Below, one piece after another: positions 1-48,888 of a stretch of 64,000 nt of DNA. The position numbers were made by a program, and so were the translations under genes. Source of the stretch: Nitrospirota bacterium. Its GTDB lineage: Bacteria > Nitrospirota > Thermodesulfovibrionia > Thermodesulfovibrionales > SM23-35. The stretch lies in assembly GCA_040753615.1 (NCBI GenBank), contig JBFMDO010000031.1, positions 2,221-66,220 on the forward strand, read 5' to 3'. Within the stretch, counting starts at the first letter, position 1; each line of letters begins with the position of its first letter. Under the pieces are notes generated by a model. The model did not search any database. It was not told where the DNA came from and was given only the letters and a program-made list of their open reading frames with translations.

Positions 1-63
1 TGAGATTGTTTATGAGCTTTATGGATTGACAGAGGAAGAGAAGAAGATAATCGAAGGCAAATG
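1..63 (+). CDS. 3' end of a restriction-modification-type DNA methyltransferase / type IIG enzyme gene (partial, continues upstream of window)
   Basis: Frame 2 is open from the window edge to TGA 61-63: EIVYELYGLTEEEKKIIEGK*. The IDxxVYxLYGLTEEE..IIE tail is the usual C-terminus of Eco57I/TaqI-like N6-adenine MTase or RM fusion proteins (recognised from memory). Confidence 0.5.
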
Positions 64-113
64 ATTTTAGAAAATTATTCAGGTAAAATAAGGACATCAA
101 GGAGGTGGAATAA

Positions 114-323
114 ATGCTGGTAAAGATAGACACATATTTTGACGGTGAGTATTGGTGTGCAAGAGGAGTTAATGAGGACATCTTCACCCAGAGCAAAACA
201 TACGATGAGTTACTGAAAAATATTAAAGAGGCTGTTAGCCTGCATTTTGAGGATGAACTCAAAAAAGGCAAGTCTGCAGAAATCTTGGTAATGTCGGAAA
301 TAGAGGTTAGCGGTGTCGCCTAA
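114..323 (+). CDS. hicB: HicB-family antitoxin (UPF0150-like, short form)
   Basis: 69 aa. GGAGG RBS at 101-105 upstream of ATG 114. EYWCARG...TYDELLKNIKEAVSLHFE resembles the HicB N-terminal fold. Overlaps the downstream HicA-like gene by 11 nt. Confidence 0.65.
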   Translation: MLVKIDTYFDGEYWCARGVNEDIFTQSKTYDELLKNIKEAVSLHFEDELKKGKSAEILVMSEIEVSGVA

Positions 324-555
324 ACTCCCACAGGTCAGCGGTCAAGAGGTAGTGAGGTTTCTCGAAAAACTCGGTTATCAGATTACCAGACAAAAAGGGA
401 GCCATATCAGGCTAAGAAAGATAACGAGTATTGGTGAACATAATATTACCATCCCAAATCATAAAACCATTGCCAAAGGAACACTAAATGACATTCTTAC
501 ACGTGTTAGCCTCTGGAATAATATAAGTAAAGAAGAATTGATAAAGCTGATATAA
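313..555 (+). CDS. hicA: HicA-family mRNA interferase toxin
   Basis: 80 aa with GTG start. LPQVSGQEVVRFLEKLGYQITRQKGSHIRL...IPNHKTIAKGTLNDIL matches the YcfA/HicA dsRBD-like signature (GSH motif). Confidence 0.75.
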   Translation: MSPKLPQVSGQEVVRFLEKLGYQITRQKGSHIRLRKITSIGEHNITIPNHKTIAKGTLNDILTRVSLWNNISKEELIKLI

Positions 556-780
556 AACGTAAAAACCATCCACGATAACTTCGTCTCCCTCGTGGACCGA
601 ATGCTCGAACTGCACAAAAAGAAAAACTCCCTCCCACCATCAGCCGAGCGCGAAAAAATAGAGCGAGAGATTGTGATAACAGATGAAAAAATAGATGAGA
701 TTGTTTATGAACTTTATGGGATAACCGAGGAGGAGAGGAAGATTATTGAGGCGGATGATTTTCGGGGTGGATTTAGGTAA
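556..780 (+). pseudogene. Reiterated start-less copy (copy 2, diverged) of the methyltransferase gene 3' end
   Basis: Open frame begins directly after the hicA stop: NVKTIHDNFVSLVDRMLELHKKKNSLPPSAEREKIEREIVITDEKIDEIVYELYGITEEERKIIE... It is homologous to 1-63 and 1324-1521. It has no upstream body or RBS. Confidence 0.6.
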
Positions 781-796
781 AATAGGATAATTAAAG

Positions 797-1105
797 ATGT
801 CAGTTTATATTGAGGTTCTTTCTAAACTTGGGAAGCAAATCAGGACAACAAGGAGGCATTGGGATGCTATAGTCGGCAAGCACGAATCGGTAAGAGGATT
901 GGAAAAGCAGGTCAAGGAAACACTTAGGAATCCTGCTTATGTCAGACTCAGCAAAGAGGATAAGTCGGTATATCTTTATTATGCGCCTTATGACGGTTAT
1001 TTCTTATGTGTTGTTTGCCGCCATCTTAATGGAGATGGTTTTATCATTACAGCATATTTAACAGATAAGATTAAAAAGGGGGTAACAGTATATGAAACCT
1101 ATTAA
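797..1105 (+). CDS. Putative toxin partner of DUF2283 (DUF4258/RelE-barnase-like small protein)
   Basis: 102 aa, overlapping the downstream DUF2283-like gene by 14 nt. C-terminal GFIITAYLTDKIKKG resembles small toxin-like proteins that pair with DUF2283. Family assignment is uncertain. Confidence 0.45.
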   Translation: MSVYIEVLSKLGKQIRTTRRHWDAIVGKHESVRGLEKQVKETLRNPAYVRLSKEDKSVYLYYAPYDGYFLCVVCRHLNGDGFIITAYLTDKIKKGVTVYETY

Positions 1106-1322
1106 GATAATTTACGATGAGAAAGGCAATACACTTTTTGTCAGGTTCAGCGAAAAAAAAGAAGCATTCTGCAAAGAAAGCGATATAGGCAAAGAAATTG
1201 TTTATTCAGTAGCTGAAGATGGGAGTGTAATAGGGTTTGAGATACTGAATTATCTTTCAAAAGGTGAGCGTAAACCTTCAAGGGTTTTGCCTGTAAAAAC
1301 TCAGGTGCTGAAAGCATCATAA
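1092..1322 (+). CDS. DUF2283-family protein (putative antitoxin)
   Basis: 76 aa. IIYDEKGNTLFVRFSEKK...DGSVIGFEILN matches the DUF2283 pattern (YDxexDxLyirf...G.ivGiEiln). Confidence 0.7.
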   Translation: MKPIKIIYDEKGNTLFVRFSEKKEAFCKESDIGKEIVYSVAEDGSVIGFEILNYLSKGERKPSRVLPVKTQVLKAS

Positions 1323-1323
1323 T

Positions 1324-1521
1324 CCCTGTTATCCACAACAAGCTCCCCTCCTTGTAAACCACGTGCTTGAACTTCGCAAAAAGAAAAACTCCCTACCCCC
1401 ATCAGCAGAGCGTGAAAAAATAGAGCGAGAAATTGCGGTTACAGATGAGAAGATAGACGAGATTGTTTATGAGCTTTATGGATTGACAGAGGAAGAGAAG
1501 AAGATAATCGAAGGCAAATGA
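1324..1521 (+). pseudogene. Reiterated start-less copy (copy 3) of the methyltransferase gene 3' end
   Basis: Open frame right after the DUF2283 stop: ...LVNHVLELRKKKNSLPPSAEREKIEREIAVTDEKIDEIVYELYGLTEEEKKIIEGK*. Bases 1459-1554 are identical to 2-97. Confidence 0.6.
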
Positions 1522-1600
1522 TTTTAGAAAATTATTCAGGTAAAATAAGGACATTAGAAAAAATTTGTTATGGCGATTGTAAAAATAGGTTTTTGTATAA

Positions 1601-1924
1601 TTACCTTAACAGTCTTTGCTGCAATAAGTCCTGCAAATCTCGCCTGCCATCAAGGACACAATGTACATAGATAGATGATTGAATAACCTGATAGATTATC
1701 CTGTAAGGCTTAAAGAAGATTTCACGAAACTCAAGGACCCCGATGCGTTCAAGTTCTATAGGGTAATGGCCTCTCGTAGGCATTGATTCAAGGGACAAAA
1801 TAGTCTTTTCGATATTGTGGAGGAGTCTGTCGGCTTTTTCGATAGAGTCGTTCAGGGCAACATAACGATAAATATCAGATAGATCCTTCTCAGCATCCTC
1901 AATAATGTAAACAAAATATTTCAT
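1601..1924 (-). CDS. parE: ParE/RelE-family toxin
   Basis: 107 aa. AEKDLSDIYRYVA...YRIIYQV...IYVHCVLDGRRD is the ParE/RelE pattern. ATGA overlap with the upstream antitoxin. Confidence 0.75.
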   Translation of the reverse strand: MKYFVYIIEDAEKDLSDIYRYVALNDSIEKADRLLHNIEKTILSLESMPTRGHYPIELERIGVLEFREIFFKPYRIIYQVIQSSIYVHCVLDGRRDLQDLLQQRLLR

Positions 1925-2205
1925 TATTGTTTAAATTCTTTGGGCTTTTTCCTTAAGTCTCTAAAAACCTCCCTAACATGCCTGAATTTGCCTGCTTCAA
2001 AACTTTTCCTGCTCATAGCAAGTATCTTGAGCATCGCAAGGCTTTCGTTGGTCTTTTCGTATTCTCTGATATCCTGAAGTATCACCTTTGCTTCGCCATT
2101 CAAAGTAATAACAACAGAACAGCCTTTCTCTGAAACTTCCCGAACAATCTCAGAGGCATGAGACTTGAAATAACTTATCGGTTTAACAGATTTACTCAAT
2201 TTCAT
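1924..2205 (-). CDS. Phd/YefM-family antitoxin
   Basis: 93 aa. KPISYFKSHASEIVREVSEKGCSVVITLNGEAKVILQDIREYE is a typical Phd/YefM N-terminus. Translationally coupled to the ParE-like gene. Confidence 0.75.
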   Translation of the reverse strand: MKLSKSVKPISYFKSHASEIVREVSEKGCSVVITLNGEAKVILQDIREYEKTNESLAMLKILAMSRKSFEAGKFRHVREVFRDLRKKPKEFKQ

Positions 2206-2775: not shown

Positions 2776-5700
2776 ATGCGTATCGAAAAAATTGAGTTAA
2801 TAGGGTTCAAATCCTTTGCAGATAAAACCACTTTTAATTTTCATCCGGGCATTACCTGTATTGTGGGTCCAAACGGGTGCGGGAAGAGCAATGTTGTTGA
2901 TGCATTCCGCTGGGTTCTTGGTGAACAGAGTGCAAAGAGCCTCAGGGGTGAAAAGATGGAAGAGGTGATTTTCAACGGCTCTGCATCGAAAAAGCCAAAG
3001 GGCATGGCTGAGGTCACTCTGGCAATATCAGGGCTGAATGGCACCCAGCAGGCAAGGCAAGGTGAAAATGGGGAAGGCTCTTCAGATACTGCATTTGTTA
3101 CGAGAAGACTTTACAGGTCTGGAGACAGCGAATACATACTAAATAAAGATCAATGCAGGTTAAAGGATATAAAAGACATTTTCCTTGATACAGGACTGGA
3201 AGTAAAGAGCTATTCTGTGCTTGAACAGGATAGGATTGCCGAGATACTTAATTCAAAACCACAGGACAGAAGGTTTCTTATAGAGGAAGTAGCAGGGGTT
3301 ATGAAGTACAACTTCAGAAAAAAGGAGGCTATCTCAAAGCTCGAATCATCCAAGGCAAATCTTCAAAGGATAAACGATATAATCAGTGAAGTAAAAAAAC
3401 AGATCAACCTGCTCGATAGACTGGCAAAAAAGGCTGAAAGATACAAAAAGCTATCTTCTGAAATCCATTCTATAGAATTGAAGATTGCTAAAAGGGATTA
3501 TCTATCACTTAAGGAAGCGTATGACAAAATACTTGCAGAATATACCACCCTTAAAGAGGATGAATCTCTTAAAAAGGCAGAGCTTGCAGGTATAGAAAAC
3601 TACATAGAGACAAAGAGACTTGAACTCCTCGAAAAAGAAAAGACATTAGAAAATATCCAGACAAAATTCCAAGATGTAGAGAAAGATATTTCCGAACTCG
3701 AAAAGCTTATAGCAATAGCGCGGACAGAACGGGATAACAATAGAGAGTATCTTGCAAAGCTCTATGAGCAGAAGGAAGAACTCAACCTCAAAGAGGAAAA
3801 GGCATCTCTTAAACAAAAAGACCTCGAAAAAACCGAAACTGATATTTCATCAGAAATAGAAAGGCAGAAGGAATTCCTTGCAGATAAAGCTGGTTTTGTA
3901 AGGTCTCTGGAGGAAGAACTCGCAGATGATGAAGAATCACTTGAAGCAAAGAGGCGCGAGATATTCAAGATATCTGAGGATATTAGCAACCGTAGGAATG
4001 ATTATAACAGCCTAAAGACATCTCTTGAAGGACTGAAACAAAGAGAAACATTATCTGTAAAAGATGCGGAGAGTCTGAAAGACATCCTATCTGATATAGA
4101 CTCCTCGCTGAAAGATTTGGAGTCAGCCCTTCTGGAAAAGAATAACAATCTTCTCATTCTTAAAGAAAAAAGGGAAGCTATTGCAAATGAGATTTCTGAA
4201 GATAAAGTCAAAATCGGAACCCTAAGAGAGAAAATATCAGGACTCAAAGAAGAACTTGCGTCTAATATATCACGCTTTGAATCTCTCAGAGAATTAATAT
4301 TTGATGAGTCAACAAAAGAAATACTTTCACAGGATTTGAATATTACTCTTATCGCATCAATTTCTGATGTAATAGAGATCGAGGCTAAGTACGAAAAGGC
4401 TGTGGAGAGCGCACTTTCAGAAAAGGCTAATTCATTTATTCTCCCTTCATACAATGATATAAAAAATGCTATATCAACGTTAAAAGAAAAAGAAACAGGT
4501 AGAACAGCACTGATACCCATTAGCCCGGTTAAAAATATTGTGGAAACAGATGTTCCTGAAGGCGTTATAGGGAGGGCATCGGATTTTATACGGACTAAAG
4601 AGGAGTTTTCTGATGTTTCAAGAAGTCTGTTTGGCAATATCTTCATAGTAAAGGATATGCAGACAGCCTTAAATCTTGTTCCCATGGGACATAACTCAGT
4701 TTTTGTGACCCTCGAAGGAGAGGTTATAGAACCATCAGGTGCGGTTATCGCAGGAGATGTAAGAGGGGTCTTCAGGAGAAAAAGAGAGATGAGGGAGCTT
4801 GAAAAAACCATTGAAAATAATAAGACCGTGATAGCCGATATGCAGGAAGAATTAAACTTAATCCTTCAGATGGCAGAAAAAAGGGAATTCGACCTTAAAG
4901 ATACTGAAACAGATATTGCAGATATTGAAAAATCGCTTTCTATTTTAAACCTGACATCCGAAAATCAGGTGGCAGAGCAAGAGCAGAAAAAGAGAAAACT
5001 TGCTTCTCTTTCAATAGAGAGAGAGCAGGTGATTAATGAGATAAAGTTAACAGAAAAACTAATTACTGAAAAAGAAGCCGAGATGCAATCAGCAGAGTCG
5101 AATAGGGAGGGACTTGAACAGGATACCTTATCCCTTCAGGAAAAAATTATGCAGAAAAGGTCGTGTCTTGAGAAATATAGGGCAGAGGTTACTGATATAA
5201 GACTCGAGATAACTTCTCTCAAGGAGAAGTTGGAATCTGTCAGAAAGGAAAGGGAAGCCCTTTTCAGAGACATGGCTAATAGTAATCAGAAAAGAGAATT
5301 TCTGTTAGCAGAAATTTTTTCAATAAATTCACGTATTGAAGAGAGAGAAAAAGAGATAAATATACATGAAGAAAAAATAAGGTCTGTGGTCTCTATCGCA
5401 GATGGATTAAAAAAAGAGATATCCGAAAGAAAAGAACTAATAGAAACTGAAAATCAGGAATTGCTATTATCTGAGCAGAATCTGAAGGGAATAAGAATCC
5501 AGATTGATTCTCTTTTTCAGAGGATATCCGAGCTCGATATCCACAAGACTGAACATAAAATGAGAATCGAGGGGTTGCATGAAAATATAATGCGGAACTA
5601 TGGCTCAGATATAGCTACTATAGAAGTGGAACCACTTTCTCCTGAAGACGAGGAAAGACTTTTTGAGCTTAAGAAAAAGATACAGGATCTCGGGACTGTA

Positions 5701-6291
5701 AATCTCGGCACTTTAGAAGAATATGAAGAGCTGCGAACACGGTATGAATTTCTTACAGCACAACAGCAAGACCTGACTAAATCTATAGCAGAACTCGAAG
5801 AGGCTATTACAAAAATAAATTCTACAACCCGCAGGAAACTCAGGGAAGCATTTGATTTGCTCAATGCTAAATTTTCGGAAGTATTTATAAAATTATTTGG
5901 CGGCGGCAGGGCTGCACTCGTTATGACAGATGAAAATAACATCCTCGACACAGGCATTGAGATAATCGCACAGCCTCCCGGAAAAAAACTCCAGAACATA
6001 AACCTCCTTTCAGGCGGAGAAAAAACCCTTACTGCCTTATCTCTGCTTTTTGCAAGTTTCCTTATTAAACCAACACCGCTCTGTGTGCTGGATGAGGCAG
6101 ATTCTGCACTGGACGAAGCAAATACAGGAAAATTTGCACAAATGATTCGTGAATTTTCAAGGGATACTCAATTTATTGTGGTAACCCACAATAGAAACAC
6201 CATGAGCGTGGCTGACTATATATATGGAATAACCATGGAAGAGCCAGGGACTTCAAAGGTAATATCCATGCAGCTTATAGAAGCGCAATAG
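2776..6291 (+). CDS. smc: Chromosome segregation protein SMC
   Basis: 1171 aa. Walker A GPNGCGKSN at the N-terminus, long coiled coils, a hinge, signature LSGGEKTLTALSLLFA and Walker B LCVLDEADSALD at the C-terminus. Confidence 0.95.
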   Translation: MRIEKIELIGFKSFADKTTFNFHPGITCIVGPNGCGKSNVVDAFRWVLGEQSAKSLRGEKMEEVIFNGSASKKPKGMAEVTLAISGLNGTQQARQGENGEGSSDTAFVTRRLYRSGDSEYILNKDQCRLKDIKDIFLDTGLEVKSYSVLEQDRIAEILNSKPQDRRFLIEEVAGVMKYNFRKKEAISKLESSKANLQRINDIISEVKKQINLLDRLAKKAERYKKLSSEIHSIELKIAKRDYLSLKEAYDKILAEYTTLKEDESLKKAELAGIENYIETKRLELLEKEKTLENIQTKFQDVEKDISELEKLIAIARTERDNNREYLAKLYEQKEELNLKEEKASLKQKDLEKTETDISSEIERQKEFLADKAGFVRSLEEELADDEESLEAKRREIFKISEDISNRRNDYNSLKTSLEGLKQRETLSVKDAESLKDILSDIDSSLKDLESALLEKNNNLLILKEKREAIANEISEDKVKIGTLREKISGLKEELASNISRFESLRELIFDESTKEILSQDLNITLIASISDVIEIEAKYEKAVESALSEKANSFILPSYNDIKNAISTLKEKETGRTALIPISPVKNIVETDVPEGVIGRASDFIRTKEEFSDVSRSLFGNIFIVKDMQTALNLVPMGHNSVFVTLEGEVIEPSGAVIAGDVRGVFRRKREMRELEKTIENNKTVIADMQEELNLILQMAEKREFDLKDTETDIADIEKSLSILNLTSENQVAEQEQKKRKLASLSIEREQVINEIKLTEKLITEKEAEMQSAESNREGLEQDTLSLQEKIMQKRSCLEKYRAEVTDIRLEITSLKEKLESVRKEREALFRDMANSNQKREFLLAEIFSINSRIEEREKEINIHEEKIRSVVSIADGLKKEISERKELIETENQELLLSEQNLKGIRIQIDSLFQRISELDIHKTEHKMRIEGLHENIMRNYGSDIATIEVEPLSPEDEERLFELKKKIQDLGTVNLGTLEEYEELRTRYEFLTAQQQDLTKSIAELEEAITKINSTTRRKLREAFDLLNAKFSEVFIKLFGGGRAALVMTDENNILDTGIEIIAQPPGKKLQNINLLSGGEKTLTALSLLFASFLIKPTPLCVLDEADSALDEANTGKFAQMIREFSRDTQFIVVTHNRNTMSVADYIYGITMEEPGTSKVISMQLIEAQ

Positions 6292-6383
6292 GATTCAAGG
6301 GGGCAAGGAGTCAAGCGAACAAGGGGGTAAAACTTAGAAAAATAAACACTTGAACCCTCGAATTCTTGAATCCTCGAACCCTC
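6291..6383. repeat. Imperfect inverted repeat built from GGNTTCAAG/TTCGAGG words, directly after the smc stop
   Basis: Left arm GGATTCAAGGGGGCAAGGAGTCAAGCGAACAAGGGGG. Right arm CTTGAACCCTCGAATTCTTGAATCCTCGAACCCTC. GGATTCAAG pairs with CTTGAATCC. The same word family occurs inside purL at 41758-41840. Confidence 0.5.
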
Positions 6384-6422
6384 TTTAACAAATAATTGAA
6401 AGAAGAAAACTTTTAGACTCCA

Positions 6423-7784
6423 ATGAACAAACTTATAGATAAATTACCAAACATAAAAATATCAACTGCCCCTGAGGATCTTATATGTTATAGCTTTGAT
6501 GCCTCAGGACTTGAGGCATTTCCTTCTGCCGTGGTCTGGCCCGAAAATACAGACGATGTAGTAAAGATTATGAAGTATGCCAGTGATAACGGTATCCCCG
6601 TGGTACCGCGTGGTGCAGGCACGGGGATGACAGCAGGAGCATTGCCATCAAAAGGAGCTATAATCCTTAGCTTCGAGAAGATGAACAGGATACTCGAGAT
6701 AGACTCTGAAAATCTTAACGTCCTTTGTGAGCCAGGTGTGATTAACGGGAAACTTCAGCGAGAGCTTGAACTGAAAGGCTTTTTCTATCCTCCAGACCCT
6801 GCGAGCATGAACTTCTGCACCATAGGTGGGAATGTTGCTGAAAATGCAGGCGGTCCGAGGGCATTGAAATATGGCGTGACGAGAGATTATGTGATGGAGA
6901 TAGAGGCTGTGCTTCCATGTGGAGAGATAGTCACAACAGGGGTCAGGACGTCAAAAGGGGTTGTTGGTTATGATCTGGCAAAACTCCTTGTAGGCTCAGA
7001 AGGGACATTATGTATATTTACAAAGATAAGGTTAAAGATGCTTCCCCTGCCTGAAGATGTTATTACATTACTTGCTATTTTTAATAATCTTGAATCAGCA
7101 GGCAAGGCAGTATCAAAGATTATAGCATCGAAAGTTATTCCGAGGACACTTGAGTTTATGGATCACGAGGCTATAAAGGCTGTTGAGAATTATAAACCTG
7201 TTGGGCTTCCAAAAGATGCAGAAGCAGTTCTCCTTATAGAAGTGGACGGTTATCCAACTGTTATAACAAAAGAGGCGGAAAAGATAGCCGAGATATGCCA
7301 GGGACTTGGTGCAGAAATAGAAATGGCAGAAGATGAATATGCAAGGACAGACCTGTGGACAGCGAGGAGGGCTGTCTCGCCTGCTCTTTATCATATAAAG
7401 CCAACAAAGATAAATGAGGATATTGTTGTTCCGAGGAGTATGATACCAGAGATGCTTAACTACCTGAGAAAGCTATCAGAGGAAAGCGGTGTAAAGATAG
7501 TAAACTTCGGACATGCAGGCGACGGAAATATTCACGTAAACATTATGGTAGACAGAAAGGATAAAGAAGAATATCAGAAAGGTTTGAATCTCGTAGGTCA
7601 AGTATTTAGTCAAACCCTTTCATTTGGGGGCACCATTTCAGGTGAACACGGTATTGGACTTACAAAGGCAGCTTATATCAAGATGGAACTATCCGAAAAA
7701 GAGATTGAGATTATGGAATCCATAAAAAAGATATTTGATCCCAAGAGAATTCTTAACCCGGGTAAAATATTCCCGGATAACTAA
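6423..7784 (+). CDS. glcD: FAD-linked oxidase, GlcD/D-lactate dehydrogenase family
   Basis: 453 aa. PCMH-type FAD-binding N-terminus (VVPRGAGTGMTAGALP) and C-terminal GGTISGEHGIGLTK...DPKRILNPGKI, typical of GlcD-like enzymes. Confidence 0.8.
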   Translation: MNKLIDKLPNIKISTAPEDLICYSFDASGLEAFPSAVVWPENTDDVVKIMKYASDNGIPVVPRGAGTGMTAGALPSKGAIILSFEKMNRILEIDSENLNVLCEPGVINGKLQRELELKGFFYPPDPASMNFCTIGGNVAENAGGPRALKYGVTRDYVMEIEAVLPCGEIVTTGVRTSKGVVGYDLAKLLVGSEGTLCIFTKIRLKMLPLPEDVITLLAIFNNLESAGKAVSKIIASKVIPRTLEFMDHEAIKAVENYKPVGLPKDAEAVLLIEVDGYPTVITKEAEKIAEICQGLGAEIEMAEDEYARTDLWTARRAVSPALYHIKPTKINEDIVVPRSMIPEMLNYLRKLSEESGVKIVNFGHAGDGNIHVNIMVDRKDKEEYQKGLNLVGQVFSQTLSFGGTISGEHGIGLTKAAYIKMELSEKEIEIMESIKKIFDPKRILNPGKIFPDN

Positions 7785-7901
7785 AAAATATTTGGTTCTT
7801 CTGGCTTTAGTGTGGGTAAGTGGGATGGAGCAAGATGTGTCCCTCTTTGGAAAAGAGAGGAAAATAAGGCATTAAATTTCTCATAAAAAAAGGGGGGAGG
7901 G

Positions 7902-8780
7902 ATGAAGAAGTATTTAGTATCAATAACAATTTTCTTGGGGTTTTTACTTTTAGTAACACCTGTCAACTCTCATGCTGAAAAGATAAAGGTAATCGCAAGT
8001 ATTGTACCGCTCGCTGATCTTGTAAAACAGGTTGGAGGAGAGAGGGTTGATGTGAGAGTGCTCTTACCGCCAGGTGCAAACCCCCATATCTATGAACCAA
8101 CTCCAAAGGCTATAAAGGATATCTCTGATGCAAGATTGTTCATCAAGATAGGAGCAGGTCTCGAATTCTGGCTTGAAAAAATAATAAAGGCATCAGGAAA
8201 TAACAGATTAATTATTGTTAATTCATCATCAGGAATACCATTAATAAAGGAAACTCATTTTCACGGCTCCTCAGTTGCTGACCCGCACATATGGCTCGAT
8301 CCAGTAATAGTAATAGATATAGTTAAAAAGATAGAAAACGCACTTGTCGAAATTGACCATCCAAATAGTGATTTATATAAAAGGCGCGCCTCTTTATATA
8401 AGGAAAAACTTTTACAACTTGATAAGGAGATATCTGAGAGAACAAAGAAATTTAAGATAAAAGAATATGTCACATTTCATCCTGCATGGAATTATTTTTC
8501 AAAAAGATATGGTCTTAAAGTTGTGGGCGTCATCGAAGAATCACCTGGAAAAGAACCAAGCCCAAAACATATCGAAAGGATAATTAAAGAGATTAAACGC
8601 ATAGGAAGCAGGGTCATTTTTGTCGAGCCTCAGTTTAATCCCAAGATTGCTGAGGCTATAGCAAAAGAAAGCGGTTCACAGGTCTTATATCTCGATCCCA
8701 TTGGCGGACAAAAAGGCAGAGAGACTTACCTGAATATAATGAGATATAATGTTTCTGTAATGGAAAGCGTAATGAGATAG
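7902..8780 (+). CDS. znuA: Periplasmic metal (Zn/Mn)-binding protein, ZnuA/TroA family
   Basis: 292 aa with a signal peptide. Metal-ligand motifs ANPHIYEP, DPHIWLDP and FHPAWNYF. Followed by the cognate ATPase and permease. Confidence 0.8.
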   Translation: MKKYLVSITIFLGFLLLVTPVNSHAEKIKVIASIVPLADLVKQVGGERVDVRVLLPPGANPHIYEPTPKAIKDISDARLFIKIGAGLEFWLEKIIKASGNNRLIIVNSSSGIPLIKETHFHGSSVADPHIWLDPVIVIDIVKKIENALVEIDHPNSDLYKRRASLYKEKLLQLDKEISERTKKFKIKEYVTFHPAWNYFSKRYGLKVVGVIEESPGKEPSPKHIERIIKEIKRIGSRVIFVEPQFNPKIAEAIAKESGSQVLYLDPIGGQKGRETYLNIMRYNVSVMESVMR

Positions 8781-9564: not shown

Positions 9565-10368
9565 ATGTTTGAAATATTAAGTTCTACTTTTATGCAGAAG
9601 GCGCTACTTGTTGGGATTATAGTCAGTCTGTTAGCTGGCATGGTATCAGTTTTTGTAGTTCTCCGCAATATGTCTTTTATAGGGGTGGGAATATCACACG
9701 CAGCCTTTGGCGGGGTAGCAATTGGTTTTTTCGCAGGAATAAACCCAATTATTACAGCCATTGTTTATTCTATGGCAATCGCACTCGGGATAGAATTAGT
9801 TGCACGCAAGGGAAAGGTCTCGGAAGATGCCTCTATAGGTATATTTTATGCCAGTTCAATGGCACTTGGCATCGTTCTCATAAGTCTATCGAGGGAATAT
9901 AATGTTGACCTTTTTGGTTACCTTTTTGGGAATATACTGGCTATTACTGATAGGGAAGTTTTTCTCTCGCTGATCTGGGCTATATTAGTAATTAGCATCA
10001 TTATGCTTTTCCGAAGAGAAATATTCATGATAACCTATAATGAGGAAATAGCACGGGTAAGCGGAATTCCTGTCAGGGCTATTAATATCCTCTTTTTAAT
10101 CATCCTTTCAATAACTATTGTTATCTCAATAAAGATTGTTGGCATAATACTTATTTCTGCCCTACTTGTCCTTCCAGGGGCAACAGCACAATTATTCCCT
10201 AAAAACCTGTATTTTATGATTATGGCATCATGTAGTGTTGCTGTAATCTCAACAGTGGTGGGTCTCTTTTTATCCTATGAATTTGATATCGCACCTGGAG
10301 GGAGCATTGTCTTGACAGCTACAGCCCTGTTTTTGATTTCGTTGTTGCTGAAAAAAAGACAGCGATAA
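9565..10368 (+). CDS. znuB: Metal ABC transporter permease (ABC-3 family)
   Basis: Polytopic membrane protein. Start moved to ATG 9565 (MFEILSSTFMQKALL), which has an AGGATGAGGA RBS just after the znuC stop. The longer ORF-track start overlaps znuC by 71 nt. Confidence 0.8.
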   Translation: MFEILSSTFMQKALLVGIIVSLLAGMVSVFVVLRNMSFIGVGISHAAFGGVAIGFFAGINPIITAIVYSMAIALGIELVARKGKVSEDASIGIFYASSMALGIVLISLSREYNVDLFGYLFGNILAITDREVFLSLIWAILVISIIMLFRREIFMITYNEEIARVSGIPVRAINILFLIILSITIVISIKIVGIILISALLVLPGATAQLFPKNLYFMIMASCSVAVISTVVGLFLSYEFDIAPGGSIVLTATALFLISLLLKKRQR

Positions 10369-10372
10369 AAAA

Positions 10373-10999
10373 CTACTCTTCTGGTGGTATCCATATTTCA
10401 GAAAGAAGAAGTGGCAGCTCAGCAGCACAGACCGGGCCAACCCTGACCTTCCACTTTGTTAATCTCTCGATATCTTCTCTCAAAGAAGCAGCAAGCCCCG
10501 GGATTATGAGTTCTTTTCTTTTTACTTTATCTTCTATTGCCGTTTCTTTTAATGCCTCCTGTATTCTTTCAGCACTCAGGGTATGATAAATCATAGACAT
10601 ATCAACTGTGTTTCCATCAGTATCTACAAATATGACAAAGAAAGGAGCTATGGTAGTCCCTAAAACAGTCAGGAGGACTTGTTCTGTATATTCATTATTT
10701 CCTGATATAAGCACCAGAGATTCAGGGGATGGATTATTTAATTCCACAAGCCCAATCAGGCTTGGCCTCGGATGAACGAGGAGTGGAACCTCGGGCCATA
10801 TGTCTTTCATCTTATAAACTGCACTTAAAGCATAAGCCTTGTTTTTGCTGAGAAAGGAACAGTTCTGAGGTTTTTTAATGCCTTTTTTAAAGGCATTAAA
10901 AAATTCTTCACACGATGAAAAACCGCATTGGAGACAATCAGGTTTTTTAATGTAACTTAAAAGATTGATTGTATTTAAATAAAGGTCTGCTGATGCCAC
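10373..10999 (-). CDS. Fe-S motif protein with a C-terminal domain resembling corrinoid-protein (AcsC/CdhE/HgcA-type) folds; function unknown
   Basis: 208 aa. N-terminal CLQCGFSSCEEF matches the CxxCGxxxC putative Fe-S cluster motif of RnfB/CdhE N-termini. The start lies 1 nt after the hisG stop, so an operon is likely. The C-terminal assignment is weak. Confidence 0.4.
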   Translation of the reverse strand: MASADLYLNTINLLSYIKKPDCLQCGFSSCEEFFNAFKKGIKKPQNCSFLSKNKAYALSAVYKMKDIWPEVPLLVHPRPSLIGLVELNNPSPESLVLISGNNEYTEQVLLTVLGTTIAPFFVIFVDTDGNTVDMSMIYHTLSAERIQEALKETAIEDKVKRKELIIPGLAASLREDIERLTKWKVRVGPVCAAELPLLLSEIWIPPEE

Positions 11000-11000
11000 A

Positions 11001-11876
11001 TTAAGGGATAACCTTATTGAGTTGATATTCTACAATCCCTGACGCGCCTGCCTTCTTTAGTTTCGGTATAATATCCCGCACGACTTTTTCGCCAATTATA
11101 ACTTCAAGTGCATACCATCCCTCGTCTGATAAAGCAGATATCGTCGGAGAATGCATTGCAGAAAGAAGGCTCATCACCCGCTTCAGCGAATTCACTGGCA
11201 CATTCATCTTGAGTCCAACCTTTTCCTCAGCAGAGAGAGCGCCTTTGAGAAGCATTGCGATATTCTCCATCTTCTGCCTTTTCCATTTATCATGCCATGC
11301 CTTTTTATTTGCGATAAACCTTGTACTCGACTCAAGTATGGTTTCGACAATCCTGAGATTATTTGCCCTCAGAGAAGTGCCTGTTTCTGTAAGCTCAACA
11401 ATCGCATCAGCAAGATGCGGAGGCTTTACCTCTGTCGCACCCCATGAAAAATCTACCTCAGCCTTTATACCTTTTGATTTAAGATATCTTTTTGTAAAAC
11501 CAACGAGTTCTGTTGCAATACGTTTTCCATTCAGGTCTTTTAAGGTCTTTATCCTCGAATCACTTGGGACCGCAATCACCCATTTCACAGGCCTGACACC
11601 TTCTTTTGCATAGAGGAGTTCAGTAATCTCATGAACTTCTACATTCTGTTCAAGTATCCAGTCCCTGCCTGTAAGCCCGCAATCGAGTATGCCTGCTTCA
11701 ACATATCTTGCCATCTCCTGTGCCCTTATTAGCATAGCTTCAATCTCAGGGTCGTCGAGGGATGGATAATAAGAACGGGGTGATATATTAATATGGTACC
11801 CTGCCTTTCTGAATAATTTTAATGTTGCCTCCTGAAGACTGCCTTTTGGTAGTCCAAGCTTTAAAATCCTGTTCAT
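11001..11876 (-). CDS. hisG: ATP phosphoribosyltransferase, long form
   Basis: 291 aa. [24 protein letters not shown]-terminus, a C-terminal regulatory domain, and AAGGAGAAG RBS. Confidence 0.9.
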
Positions 11877-11972
11877 AACTTCTCCTTTTAAGGATAAACT
11901 TTAACCTTGTGATATAATAAAAATATTAAATCTGTCCAAGATGATTTTATAGAGGAGATGGCGTTTTCTTTC

Positions 11973-12042
11973 TAAGGTGTTGCTATTGTGTTTCTTCAGC
12001 ATCCAGCCCCCCCTGCCTATTTATGTTATTTGGACAGGCATG
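11973..12042 (+). repeat. Conserved ~70-nt intergenic element, copy A (upstream of mfd)
   Basis: TAAGGTGTTGCTATTGTGTTTCTTCAGCATCCAGCC...TTTGGACAGGCATG aligns by eye at about 80 percent identity with 20348-20416. Both copies lie in divergent intergenic regions, in the same orientation as the downstream + strand gene. Confidence 0.6.
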
Positions 12043-12082
12043 TAAAGATATATAATTTATCATATAGCTAATAATTGTTACA

Positions 12083-15000
12083 ATGCCAATAGATTTTACA
12101 CCCCTTATAAATATCATTAAAAAGAATATGCGGATTTATAACCTTAGAGGCTCATCTGCTGCCCTGCTTCTTTGTCTTTATGATGAACCTTTTCTTGCTG
12201 TTGAGTCAACTGAGGAGCTTGCAGAAGAACTCTGCAGGGATATCAATTTTTTCAGAGGGATATTAAAAAAAGAACCTGTCTTCTTTCTTCCAGAGCCTGA
12301 CGGCCCCTTTTTTTCTGGCGAGAGGACAAGGGTAGTTTGCTCACTAAATAAAACCAGTTCTATTGTCTGTTCTTTTAAAAATCTCAAATCACATATATGG
12401 TCTCAGGAAGAATTAAACAGGATTGGCATAAATTTCGAAAAAGGCATTGAAATCAGCAGGGCATGGCTTGAGGAAAGGCTTCAGGAGATTGGCTACAGGG
12501 AAGTCCCGCTTATTGCTGAAAAAGGAGAATATAGCAGACGCGAATGGCTTATTGATATCTTCCCTTCTACCTCAGAGATGCCAATACGGCTTGAATTCTT
12601 TGGAGATGAAATAGAGAGCATGAAGTTTTTTGATATTGATACACAGAGATCTAAAGAAGACGTGTCTAATCTTCTAATATTTCCTGCAAGAGATCCCATA
12701 TCAGGCATAACACCACTTGTTCTGATGAGTAATGCGAACTATATATTTTCGGATTCTATACAGGAAAGAGATGGACTGCCTGATGGTATCACATTTTTTT
12801 CAAGATATCCCATAAAAGGAACAGGTCATGATGCGGGCGCACTTTCAATTAAAGGTCTTGGAATTTTGCCTGAAGAGAGAAAACATTTAGAGGAATTGCC
12901 ACAGAATATCAAACTTCTTAAGAAAGAAAACAGGATATTTATTATCTCTTCATCAAATGGACAGGCTGGACGTCTTAAAGACATACTTAATGAAGGAGAT
13001 GTAATCGCACCAATCATAGACAAGACAGAAATTTTTGAATATGAAGGAAACATTTCTATAACAGTCGGAGGGCTTTCATCAGGTCTCTTTTTCCCGGGTT
13101 TCCTGATTTTAACTGAAAAAGAAATATTCGGAGAAAGTCCTGGTTACAGGCCTATTAAAAAGTCAAGGGTATCAAAGCTTCTAACCTCACTCGATGATCT
13201 TAAACCAGAAGATTTTGTGGTTCACAGGGACCATGGTATTGGTAGATTTAAAGGACTCATCCGTCAGAATACAGAAGGGCTTGAACAAGACCTCATGTTG
13301 ATTGATTACGAAAATGGAAGATTATACATGCCTCTTCAGGCGATTAATATGATACAGAAATATCGTGCTGAAGACAGTGTTATACCGAGAATTGACAGGC
13401 TCGGGGGGAAGACATGGCTAAGGACAAAAGAGAAGGTAAGAAAAAAGATTCAGGAGCTGGCAGAAAAACTCATTTCAGTTCATGCAGAAAGAAAGGTTCA
13501 TAAAGGTTTTTCATTCAGCGATGACACCGAACTTCACAGGGAATTTGATAGTTTTTTCCAATATGAAGAAACACCCGACCAGCTTAATGCTATAGAAGAC
13601 ATTAAAAGAGATATGGCATCAGAAAGACCAATGGATAGGCTCGTCTGTGGCGATGTGGGGTATGGTAAAACAGAAGTCGCTATGAGAGCAGCATTCAAGG
13701 CAGTATATGATGGAATGCAGGCGGCTATTCTTGTTCCTACAACAATATTATGCGAACAGCATTATCGGACTTTCAAATCAAGGTTTTCTGCATTTCCTGT
13801 CACAATAGATTACCTGAGCAGGTTTAAATCTAAAAAAGACCAGAGGGAGACCATTAAGGCATTATCAAACGGAGATATTGACATAATCATAGGCACACAT
13901 CTTCTTCTTAACAGAAGTATAAATTTTTATAAGCTCGGCTTGCTTGTTATTGACGAGGAACACAGGTTTGGCGTCACCCAGAAGGAAAAGCTAAAAGAAT
14001 TGAGAAAAGAGGTTGATGTGATCACACTTACTGCTACGCCGATACCGAGAACACTTTCTATGGCGCTCTCAGACATGAGGGATATGAGCCTGATCGAGAC
14101 GCCTCCTGAAGAAAGGCTCGCTGTCAGAAGCATAGTCTCTGTATTCGATGAAAAACTGATAAGAGATGCAATAGAAAAAGAAATCGAGAGAAATGGTCAG
14201 GTCTTTTTTGTACATAACAGGATAAAGGATATTTACAAGATTGCAGATTATCTTATGAAGCTTATGCCTTCAGCAAGGATATCTGTTGTGCACGGGCAGA
14301 TGCCTGAAAAAGAACTCGAAAAAATTATGCTTAAATTTTACGACTCAAACATAAATGTCCTTGTATCCACAGCCATTATCGGTTCCGGTCTTGATATACC
14401 AACAGCCAATACAATTATTATCAACAGGGCGGATATGATGGGTCTTGCTGACCTCTATCAACTCAGGGGGCGTGTTGGCAGAGGCAATGTAAGGGCATAT
14501 GCCTATTTTTTAATTCCCGGAGAAGATATTATTACAGAAGAGGCTAAAAAAAGGCTTCAGGCTATACAAGAGATGAGCTATCTCGGAGCAGGCTTCAGGC
14601 TTGCCCTAAAAGACCTTGAAATCAGAGGCGCAGGAAATCTCCTCGGTTCTGAACAATCAGGACATATACATGCAGTTGGGTTTGACCTTTATATGGAGAT
14701 GCTGGGAAAGGCGGTTGCAGAATTAAAAGGACAGAAGATAGAAGAATTCGATCCTATAATAAGCCTGAAGGTTAATGCGTTTATACCTGAAGAGTATATT
14801 GATGACATAACACTCAGGCTGAGTATTTATAGAAGGATTGCTTCATCAATGACATATGAAAATATAAAAGCACTCGAGATGGAAATAGGAGACAGATTTG
14901 GGAAGCTGCCAATAGAAGTTAGAAACCTTATGGACATAATGAGGCTCAAGATAATGGCGAGAGACTTACTCATTGCAAAGATTCAGGACGTACACGGAAG

Positions 15001-48790: not shown

Positions 48791-48888
48791 TGGCGGGAGC
48801 GTGTGGGAATCGAACCCACCCTGCCCGTTTGTAACAGGCAACACTGGATTTGAAGTCCAGGAGGGACACCAGAACCCTATACACTCCC
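48791..48888 (-). tRNA. selC: tRNA-Sec (anticodon UCA), CCA encoded
   Basis: Reverse complement is GGGAGTGTATAGGGTTCTGGTGTCCCTCCTGGACTTCAAATCCAGTGTTGCCTGTTACAAACGGGCAGGGTGGGTTCGATTCCCACACGCTCCCGCCA. It has an 8-bp acceptor stem (GGGAGTGT/ACGCTCCC with one G-U pair), a 5-bp T stem (GTGGG/CCCAC, loop TTCGATT), and an anticodon arm CTGGA-CTTCAAA-TCCAG. There is also a long 7-bp variable arm. The 8/5 geometry is the bacterial tRNA-Sec hallmark. Confidence 0.9.

Follow-up and report, generated by a model that had tools for sequence, protein, structure and literature searches.

The first 2,205 nucleotides (nt) of a 64-kb stretch of Nitrospirota DNA (contig JBFMDO010000031.1; the whole stretch is called the window below) contain three copies, in the same orientation, of the 3' tail of a type IIG restriction-modification (RM) gene (1-97, 556-784, and 1323-1554), with toxin-antitoxin (TA) gene pairs lying between them. 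In a survey of 57 sequences including the window, conducted with a 303-nt gene-end profile, we have found 105 matches, every one on the strand of the gene, and 2-5 co-oriented tails split by TA or defence cassettes in at least 23 of the 57 sequences (22 related loci and the window), the full gene standing first in most of them. On balance, and with moderate confidence, we regard this architecture as a 3'-end displacement array behind a type IIG RM gene, which would have grown by serial homologous recombination (HR) in the conserved tail and would later have been eroded by deletions. The tail would act as portable homology, since different alleles have no other DNA in common immediately ahead of the variable downstream region.

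Gene-end repeats and cassettes of the window

The following features make up the array and its distal edge; profile positions are those of the gene-end profile.

1-64, plus strand: tail copy 1, the last 20 codons (2-61) and the TGA stop codon (62-64) of the RM-type gene; profile positions 240-299.
65-97, plus strand: post-tail untranslated region (UTR) of type A, TTTTAGAAAATTATTCAGGTAAAATAAGGACAT; the repeat ends between 97 and 98 and is identical to 1522-1554.
98-555, plus strand: cassette 1, with a 16-nt leader containing a ribosome-binding site (RBS; 98-113), a hicB-like antitoxin gene (114-323), and a hicA toxin gene (313-555).
556-784, plus strand: tail copy 2, an orphan of about 65 codons (profile positions ~104-298) with a shortened type-A UTR ending in AGGTAAAATA (775-784).
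785-1322, plus strand: cassette 2, with the leader GGATAATTAAAG, a 102-aa DUF4258/RelE-like open reading frame (ORF) called tox102 (797-1105), and DUF2283 (1092-1322).
1323-1521, plus strand: tail copy 3, an orphan; profile positions 109-300; its 3' part is identical to copy 1.
1522-1554, plus strand: second copy of the type-A UTR; the identity with copy 1 stops between 1554 and 1555.
1601-2205, minus strand: convergent parE/phd pair (parE 1601-1924, phd 1924-2205; Pfam, TIGR01552), the distal edge of the array.

Each tail copy consists of the final codons ...DEKIDEIVYELYG(L/I)TEEE.KIIEGK, a stop codon, and an untranslated stretch of about 33 nt with AGGTAAAATA(A)GGA. Positions 2-97 and 1459-1554 show 100% identity over 96 nt, and copies 2 (588-749) and 3 (1350-1511) are 82% identical over 162 nt (blastn, E=1e-45), a level kept at about 82% up to 184 nt; no fourth copy was detected by blastn in the 64-kb window. 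Copy 2 has a 1-nt deletion shortly 5' of the stop, by which the frame extends to the TAA at 778-780, and the frame of copy 3 shifts within the 5' part (~1340-1360). Because each has frame damage, both are regarded as decaying fragments. The repeats agree with a first-pass annotation of this DNA, which had reported three gene-end copies with the 96-nt identity, a diverged middle copy, and a 1-nt frame change near the stop; it had correctly seen copy 1 at the very start of the window but placed its stop codon at 61-63 instead of 62-64. By analogy with arrays that open with a full gene (L001, L004, L007, L008, L009, L014, L016, and L017; related loci are cited by such numbers), copy 1 is presumed to be the end of an intact gene lying outside the window.

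The hicBA pair between copies 1 and 2, the toxin-like/DUF2283 pair between copies 2 and 3, and the opposite-strand parE/phd pair after copy 3 are arranged as had been described. With the profile, copies 2 and 3 start at 560 and 1328, i.e., 4-5 nt past the stop codons of hicA and DUF2283, which upholds the statement that a tail directly follows the stop of the preceding cassette; the companion statement, that a next cassette follows every copy, fails at copy 3, which has no co-oriented cassette behind it. The sequence AGGTAAAATAAGGA occurs in the window only at 81-94 and 1538-1551 (0.13 sites expected by chance; two or more sites in 0 of 100 shuffles), and AGGTAAAATA-GGA of copy 2 lies at 775-787. 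A shared post-tail motif is indeed present in all three copies, but it is not a universal junction, belonging to one of at least three UTR types that track the downstream cassette, and the suggestion that it marks junctions genome-wide found no backing within the 64-kb window, where it is confined to tails. The type-A UTR of 65-97 was also found 5' of HicB-like, DUF433, and tox102 cassettes of other arrays. An exact 25-mer spanning the junction of copy 1 and hicB gave no match in metagenomes of the Joint Genome Institute (JGI), and look-ups of identical proteins gave none for HicB, HicA, DUF2283, or the 62-aa tail ORF.

The gene pairs of the window fit type II TA modules, being adjacent small genes with family signatures, and toxicity and its neutralization are predicted for them. 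HicA (E-value 2e-16), ParE (5.5e-15), Phd (5.7e-14), and DUF2283 (3e-10) passed the Pfam cut-offs; HicB (0.0029) and the 102-aa ORF as DUF4258 (0.016) fell below them, and these two assignments are tentative, resting chiefly on gene order and on partners that are conserved elsewhere among the arrays. Both cassettes have relatives elsewhere. The hicBA pair is found with 94-95% aa identity in L008 and L017, where the same junction to a tail follows, and in L008 it begins at the same leader CAAGGAGGTGGAATAA as in the window, while hicB alone (~81% aa) lies directly 3' of the full gene in L023. Matches to tox102/DUF2283 were obtained in L011 (93-95% aa) and, in partial form (a truncated tox102, or DUF2283 only), in L010 and L016 (84-92%). 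No match to the parE/phd pair was found in any other array among the related loci.

Identity of the repeated gene

Since the window starts inside copy 1 and shows the last 20 codons only, the gene identity has been taken from relatives, for which context data of 52 loci from species-representative genomes were used. In these related loci, the tail ends a single-chain type IIG enzyme of about 1000 aa and is the part 3' of TaqI_C, so that the earlier assignment of the fragments to an RM-type gene is borne out. The gene of L008 (7208-10198) has the domains HSDR_N (2.5e-10), MmeI_N (2.3e-5), Eco57I (1.7e-38), N6_Mtase (1.2e-22), and TaqI_C (3.2e-24; residues 803-921), and an MmeI_Mtase domain as well as PglX-like and TaqI-like matches were also found in it. 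The full homologous genes have the type IIG layout of the MmeI/Eco57I kind, with an N-terminal nuclease, a gamma-class N6-adenine methylase, and a TaqI_C-type recognition domain. DNA similarity between alleles covers the first ~1.5 kb and then only the part from L008 ~9978 to the stop, the recognition region between them being unalignable; in the gene family, a conserved 5' part and a conserved tail of ~215 nt enclose a hypervariable target-recognition region.

A protein search with copy 2 gave 258 matches, and each of the 120 listed has a length of 50-120 aa and an identity of 70-92%, the sources being Nitrospirota, 'Deltaproteobacteria', and Aminicenantia metagenomes. Small ORFs made up of the tail fragment alone are frequent in public protein sets and, at 50-120 aa, are probably pseudogene scars. 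Such fragments have been deposited as 'hypothetical proteins', and one of them (P0020) was labelled murein tripeptide amidase MpaA by its source.

Two further observations concern the surroundings of the full gene. A conserved 358-aa gene without a Pfam match lies directly 3' of the RM gene in L008 (10281-11357), L011 (10195-11165), and L014 (910-1986); in L011 and L014, its start codon overlaps with the RM stop or lies right next to it, and it may be a partner of the type IIG enzyme. At three Brachyspira loci, a second C-terminal half (residues ~567-996, recognition domain included) is present 3' of the full gene (L044 5809-7275, L047 5576-6814, and L053 8981-10192), and these half-copies look more like a spare specificity module than a tail remnant.

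Distribution and polymorphism of the arrays

Loci with 2-5 tails come from Nitrospirota/Thermodesulfovibrionia and from other phyla and fall, besides the window, into the following two groups.

Close family: L001, L002, L003, L004, L005, L007, L008, L009, L014, L016, L017, L020, L026, L028, and L045.
Other phyla, with their own version of the tail: L034 and L038 (Acidobacteriota), L051 (Stahlbacteria), L042 (Sumerlaeota), L055 (Cyanothece), and L036 and L052 (unclassified 'bacterium' metagenome-assembled genomes).

A Pfam census of the 111 ORFs between tails gave mostly type II TA families (DUF433/PIN_10, UPF0175/DUF3368, HepT/MNT, PIN, HicA, TumE, DUF2283, and RES), together with DUF559, TIR, and TPR proteins, and PADLOC pointed to further candidate defence systems among the cassettes, namely GajA, RmrA, and a methyl-directed nuclease. 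We have found no description of such RM-tail/TA arrays in the open-access literature.

This recurrence bears on the trivial explanation that metagenomic reads were mis-joined at a repeat. Copies 1 and 3 do share at least 96 identical bases, and a short-read Logan assembly of the same sample (SRR29635778) breaks here, into 5.3-kb and 933-bp contigs; however, the architecture is seen in dozens of independent assemblies, among them contigs of 0.7 and 2.4 Mb, and most tails are ~20% divergent and could not be confused by an assembler. An assembly artefact is therefore extremely improbable.

Different arrays occupy the same chromosomal site. The gene order serA-purA-comF-RM is found in L006, L008, L011, L017, and L050, and the arrays of the first four of these differ from one another; in the window, the array lies upstream of the SMC gene at 2776-6291. 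L006 and L008 are 88-89% identical in the flanks and the gene and diverge directly after the stop of the gene, and L008 and L017 have the distal hicBA in common, with different proximal cassettes and a different recognition region. In L059, the closest relative (SMC 70% aa; 10001-13564 and flanks), rsmE, BrkB, and Der replace the RM gene, the TA array, and parE/phd upstream of SMC, and the genes downstream of SMC (FAD oxidase and pterin-binding protein) are common to L059 and window 2776-8780. Because L059 lacks them at that place, the RM gene and its array are accessory, and the first ~2.7 kb of the window is an accessory island. Across genomes, cassette content is recurrent and polymorphic, and is not the fixed arrangement that the first-pass annotation had named as evidence against its own proposal. 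That proposal, serial capture in which each module brings or regenerates a gene end, is supported by the sharing of cassettes, the polymorphic arrays, and, as described below, imported tails.

Two RNA features of the window were noted. A match to the c-di-GMP-I-UAU aptamer (RF03168) at 2524-2599 on the minus strand reached 36.6 bits (E=1.6e-5), against a gathering score of 65.9; phd/parE follows ~320 nt further downstream on that strand, and no long ORF intervenes. The sole tRNA of the window is tRNA-SeC with the anticodon TCA (48791-48888, minus strand), and the organism therefore probably uses selenocysteine.

Orphan tails and the heritable unit

Statistics were taken from 42 non-redundant orphan tails of the close family. 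The orphans are anchored at the 3' side, 37 of the 42 reaching the stop codon of the gene, and their 5' starts are spread over profile positions 84-260, with none before 84. Position ~84 is where blastn similarity between alleles resumes (L008 9978-9981), and the longest orphan is as long as the inter-allelic DNA homology. The stop codon of the preceding cassette is supplied by the tail itself at two distinct junctions, L004 2871 (near-identical copy at L002 1052) and L005 3193.

These lengths also bear on a second explanation, in which whole RM genes and TA pairs once stood in tandem and the gene bodies were deleted, the tails being kept as promoters of addictive TA operons without any mobility of cassettes. 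The 3'-anchored orphans eroding from the 5' side, a truncation in L011 that has left the UTR alone of one tail, and the second half-gene of the Brachyspira loci would suit such a graveyard of genes. However, none of the 42 orphans exceeds the conserved tail, though the gene is 3 kb long; the neighbours of one and the same cassette change from array to array and from genome to genome; whole cassettes distinguish near-identical strains; and the window still has copies 1 and 3 in identical form. We consider this explanation distinctly improbable.

At least three alternative types of UTR follow the tails.

Type A: TGATTTTAG...AGGTAAAATAAGGACAY, then an RBS.
Type B: TATGCTATAATCAATCAAAAGGAGG, with an extended -10-like element; it carries TGCTATAAT.
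Type C: a GC-rich palindrome, CCCCTCTTA...TAAGAGGGGG, resembling a terminator or a repetitive extragenic palindromic (REP) element; L002 ~1925-1990 (also L004 ~3745-3810), L028 ~680-730, and L045 ~1750-1830.

The UTR type goes with the cassette downstream of it: UPF0175 is preceded by type B in 4/4 cases, DUF433 by type A in 3/3, HicB-like by type A in 5/5 where the UTR is retained, and the family c11 by type C in 2/2, the GC-rich palindrome adjoining this one cassette family in two loci. The 5' junction of a tail tends to go with the cassette upstream of it, being located at 144-149 after DUF3368 in 4 of 5 cases and at 102-104 after three close hicA copies. Because the UTR tracks the downstream cassette and the junction the upstream one, the UTR, the cassette ORFs, and the 5' portion of the tail that follows form the heritable unit, with exchange occurring within the tail.

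Evidence for recombination in the tail

The nearest relative of a tail was found in its own locus for only 9 of 56 tails, and the mean identity was 0.81 within arrays vs 0.78 between them. Because array-mates are not each other's nearest relatives, the tails have been imported and not duplicated in place; concerted evolution or local duplication of tails was rejected on the same count. Recent exchange is seen in L002, L003, and L004, which were obtained in one study and are 99.2-99.85% identical over kilobases, with different upstream neighbours and cassette content. The identity switches at L003:372, inside the tail (profile ~262), and at L002:457, 38 nt inside the DUF433 ORF; since breakpoints fall at differing positions in whatever is homologous, general HR is indicated. 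Where two tails of the same array agree perfectly over a tract, as in the window (at least 96 nt) and in L028 (88 nt, with divergent flanks on both sides), the tract is a conversion or crossover patch. Sliding identity over hicBA between the window and L017 was ~85% in the cassette and flanks alike and is uninformative on crossover points.

The displacement that we favour may be pictured as follows. The unit of UTR, cassette ORFs, and partial tail would be inserted, excised, and swapped by recombination within the tail, likely through a RecA-type crossover, the partner being either an excised circle or DNA of another cell that bears an array. Transforming DNA can trigger interchromatid unequal crossing-over, which is a documented way to such duplications by HR only (PMC3784515). 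Every insertion would supply the gene with a fresh tail, and the old tail and cassette would shift one step downstream. From a crossover between a circle of this composition and the tail of the gene, the linkage, the ceiling on orphan length, and the co-orientation would all be predicted. Displaced cassettes could be retained as addictive TA modules, because the loss of an antitoxin would be lethal, or as useful defence genes, and deletions would shorten the orphan tails from their 5' ends as far as the UTR, which may be needed for expression of the next cassette. For the window, the last event would have placed the block hicBA - tail 2 - tox102/DUF2283 between the still-identical copies 1 and 3; that a block of two cassettes was moved is suggested because these identical copies bracket a block whose internal tail is ~20% diverged.

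Several observations weigh against this account. It leaves the origin of new cassette-to-tail junctions unaccounted for. No sigma-70 promoter was called in the type-A UTR by a consensus scan, and cassettes abut without a tail between them in L006, L010, and L016. The orphan start lies within 16 nt past the stop of the preceding co-oriented ORF in 27 of 37 cases (median gap 6 nt), which is tighter than HR alone predicts. The junction is also not strictly cassette-specific, since the HicA family (35% clustering) joins at 86, 102-104, and 158, and DUF3368 once at 102. Lastly, tox102/DUF2283 of the window and L011 (12675-13214) has 95% nt identity over window 784-1323 only (27 mismatches per 526 nt; 15 synonymous and 11 non-synonymous codon differences). 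This identity ends exactly at the stop codon, beyond which four loci have four different sequences, the neighbouring tails being 76-81% identical. Because the identity stops at the stop codon and unrelated DNA follows, this right end was not made by a crossover in shared homology, and illegitimate or microhomology-mediated joining must also contribute.

In its full form, such joining would be an explanation of its own, in which one homologous crossover in the gene is combined with one illegitimate microhomology joint, either by homology-facilitated illegitimate recombination (HFIR) in transformation or by template switching, with a new junction for each event. It would account for the junctions scattered in the tail and placed directly after stops, the two cases in which the tail supplies the stop, and the right end of the 95% cassette, which has no flanking homology. 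Small microhomology slips are also seen in these regions: 9 nt were lost between TTTATGG repeats in the tail of L003 (357-372), and AGGACA was lost from the UTR of window copy 2 (between 784 and 785) relative to L011. Against it, junction positions tend to be common to one cassette family across genomes, the absence of junctions upstream of position 84 is not explained, and the known outcome of such joining is replacement with deletion, not duplication (PMC3240628). As the whole explanation it seems unlikely to us; illegitimate joining is probably a contributor and the source of new junctions, not the main engine.

Search for a site-specific system

The word 'site-specific' in the first-pass annotation raises the explanation that a recombinase encoded elsewhere in the genome inserts circular molecules of a cassette and a partial tail at a tail/UTR site, as an integron or a cis-mobilizable element (CIME) would. 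The left boundary of cassettes is constant for several unrelated cassettes, lying between ...AAGGACAT and the RBS; cassettes are ORF-tight and co-oriented; the 95%-identical cassette is sharp-ended in different contexts; and three recent events lie in the last ~90 nt of the tail (the window tract, the 88-nt tract of L028, and L003:372). Nevertheless, no recombinase family was found in two or more of the 87 flanking ORFs (at least 160 aa, within 8-9 kb of 20 arrays) or of the 111 cassette ORFs, no integrase, resolvase, or transposase family recurred in the cassettes or array flanks, and no cognate integrase was found in cis, the search having covered the surroundings of arrays. Where the upstream region is complete (L001, L007, L008, and L017), housekeeping genes are located there.

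Nor does the tail itself have the structure of a site. Copy 2 folded as single-stranded DNA gave z = +0.60 and +0.72 vs shuffles on the two strands, i.e., no attC-like fold; no inverted repeats were detected inside the window tails, and no Rfam family in window 1-2205; and inspection of the UTR by eye gave no convincing match to a Xer/dif-like site. No att core at a fixed position was found, as orphan starts range over 84-260 and the breakpoints are L003:372 and L002:457, the latter within a cassette ORF. At least three unrelated UTR types follow the tails, and distant phyla show the same architecture with quite different tail DNA. On this evidence a site-specific system is quite unlikely, and the term is not supported, nor is the analogy to tRNA islands and integrons, for which neither a fixed core nor intI nor attC was found.

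A related idea is that the tail and UTR form a dedicated platform for capture and expression of cassettes, an integron without an integrase, into which ORF-precise cassettes (from RBS to stop) are cut and pasted by a further activity. This activity could be supplied in trans, or by the restriction enzyme or its tightly coupled partner gene. If true, the platform explains both the 95% cassette ending at its stop in unrelated contexts and the occurrence of the arrays across phyla; we give it little credence.

Comparison with known systems

With HR in the tail, as favoured here, the logic of displacement reaches beyond the secreted polymorphic toxins (rhs, cdiA, and mafB), to a restriction enzyme that acts inside the cell and to TA pairs that stand free. 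It also provides a concrete recombinase-free way in which defence islands and chromosomal TA clusters could grow, a question left open by the lack of recognizable mobile-element genes in most of them. A gene that is hypervariable in the middle and conserved in the tail would serve as a landing pad, at which ordinary recombination stacks cassettes and leaves datable scars. In practice, unannotated TA and defence cassettes of uncultured bacteria can be located cheaply by searching with the tail profile.

Integrons and superintegrons with TA cassettes resemble the present arrays in being compact, co-oriented, and mostly ORF-tight, in the repeated element that parts their cassettes, in the abundance of TA genes, and in having cassettes common to different arrays. 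Unlike them, the present arrays have no attC hairpin, and intI was not found next to them (in the flanks of 20 arrays, the upstream side of the window being outside the view); their repeat is a coding sequence of 50-215 nt, and breakpoints are not fixed. Accretion of CIMEs and integrative elements, as at fda in Streptococcus thermophilus and at tRNA islands, proceeds by serial insertion at a 3' end, which regenerates the gene end and leaves direct repeats. Direct gene-end repeats between elements without their own integrase are common to both, but the att sites there have a fixed core and are served by a tyrosine or serine recombinase of a resident element, neither of which was seen here.

The closer analogy is C-terminal displacement at rhs and cdiA loci. 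Neisseria has comparable arrays of orphan modules at its mafB loci. Two traits of these three kinds of locus are also found here, namely an intact gene with variable-length co-oriented fragments and the exchange of modules at boundaries in the handle. For rhs, it has been proposed that a circle is excised by HR between repeated core fragments and goes back in through one crossover, so that the end already in place is moved downstream (Jackson et al., 2009, PMC2935791). The rhs arrays likewise begin with an intact gene, followed by co-oriented fragments of its conserved part that vary in length, each with a variable unit and small downstream genes, and their units are common to loci and strains without a dedicated recombinase (PMC2935791). 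They differ in that the host there is a secreted toxin and here an RM enzyme, and that the handle here is the extreme tail. Because this handle takes in the stop codon and 3' UTR, fusion of cargo and host protein never arises, and free-standing type II TA pairs and defence genes make up the cargo.

Orphan cdiA-CT/cdiI modules retain varying lengths of upstream cdiA, and the identity of modules between strains is bounded by successive conserved motifs (Poole et al., 2011, PMC3150448). They are similar to the present arrays in the toxin/immunity-type pairs, each with a varying stretch of the conserved host gene on its 5' side, and in the sharp limits of modules. The VENN handle of cdiA is, however, in frame with the toxin domain, and recombination there reloads the main gene with a new toxin, whereas here only the gene-adjacent cassette changes; an in-frame C-terminal toxin domain with an immunity gene as the variable unit, which is a trait of polymorphic toxins, was not found in the present arrays. 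Displacement arrays are known for secreted polymorphic toxins; the open-access literature gave us no account of such an array on an RM gene, with free-standing TA and defence cassettes and with a handle that includes the stop codon and UTR.

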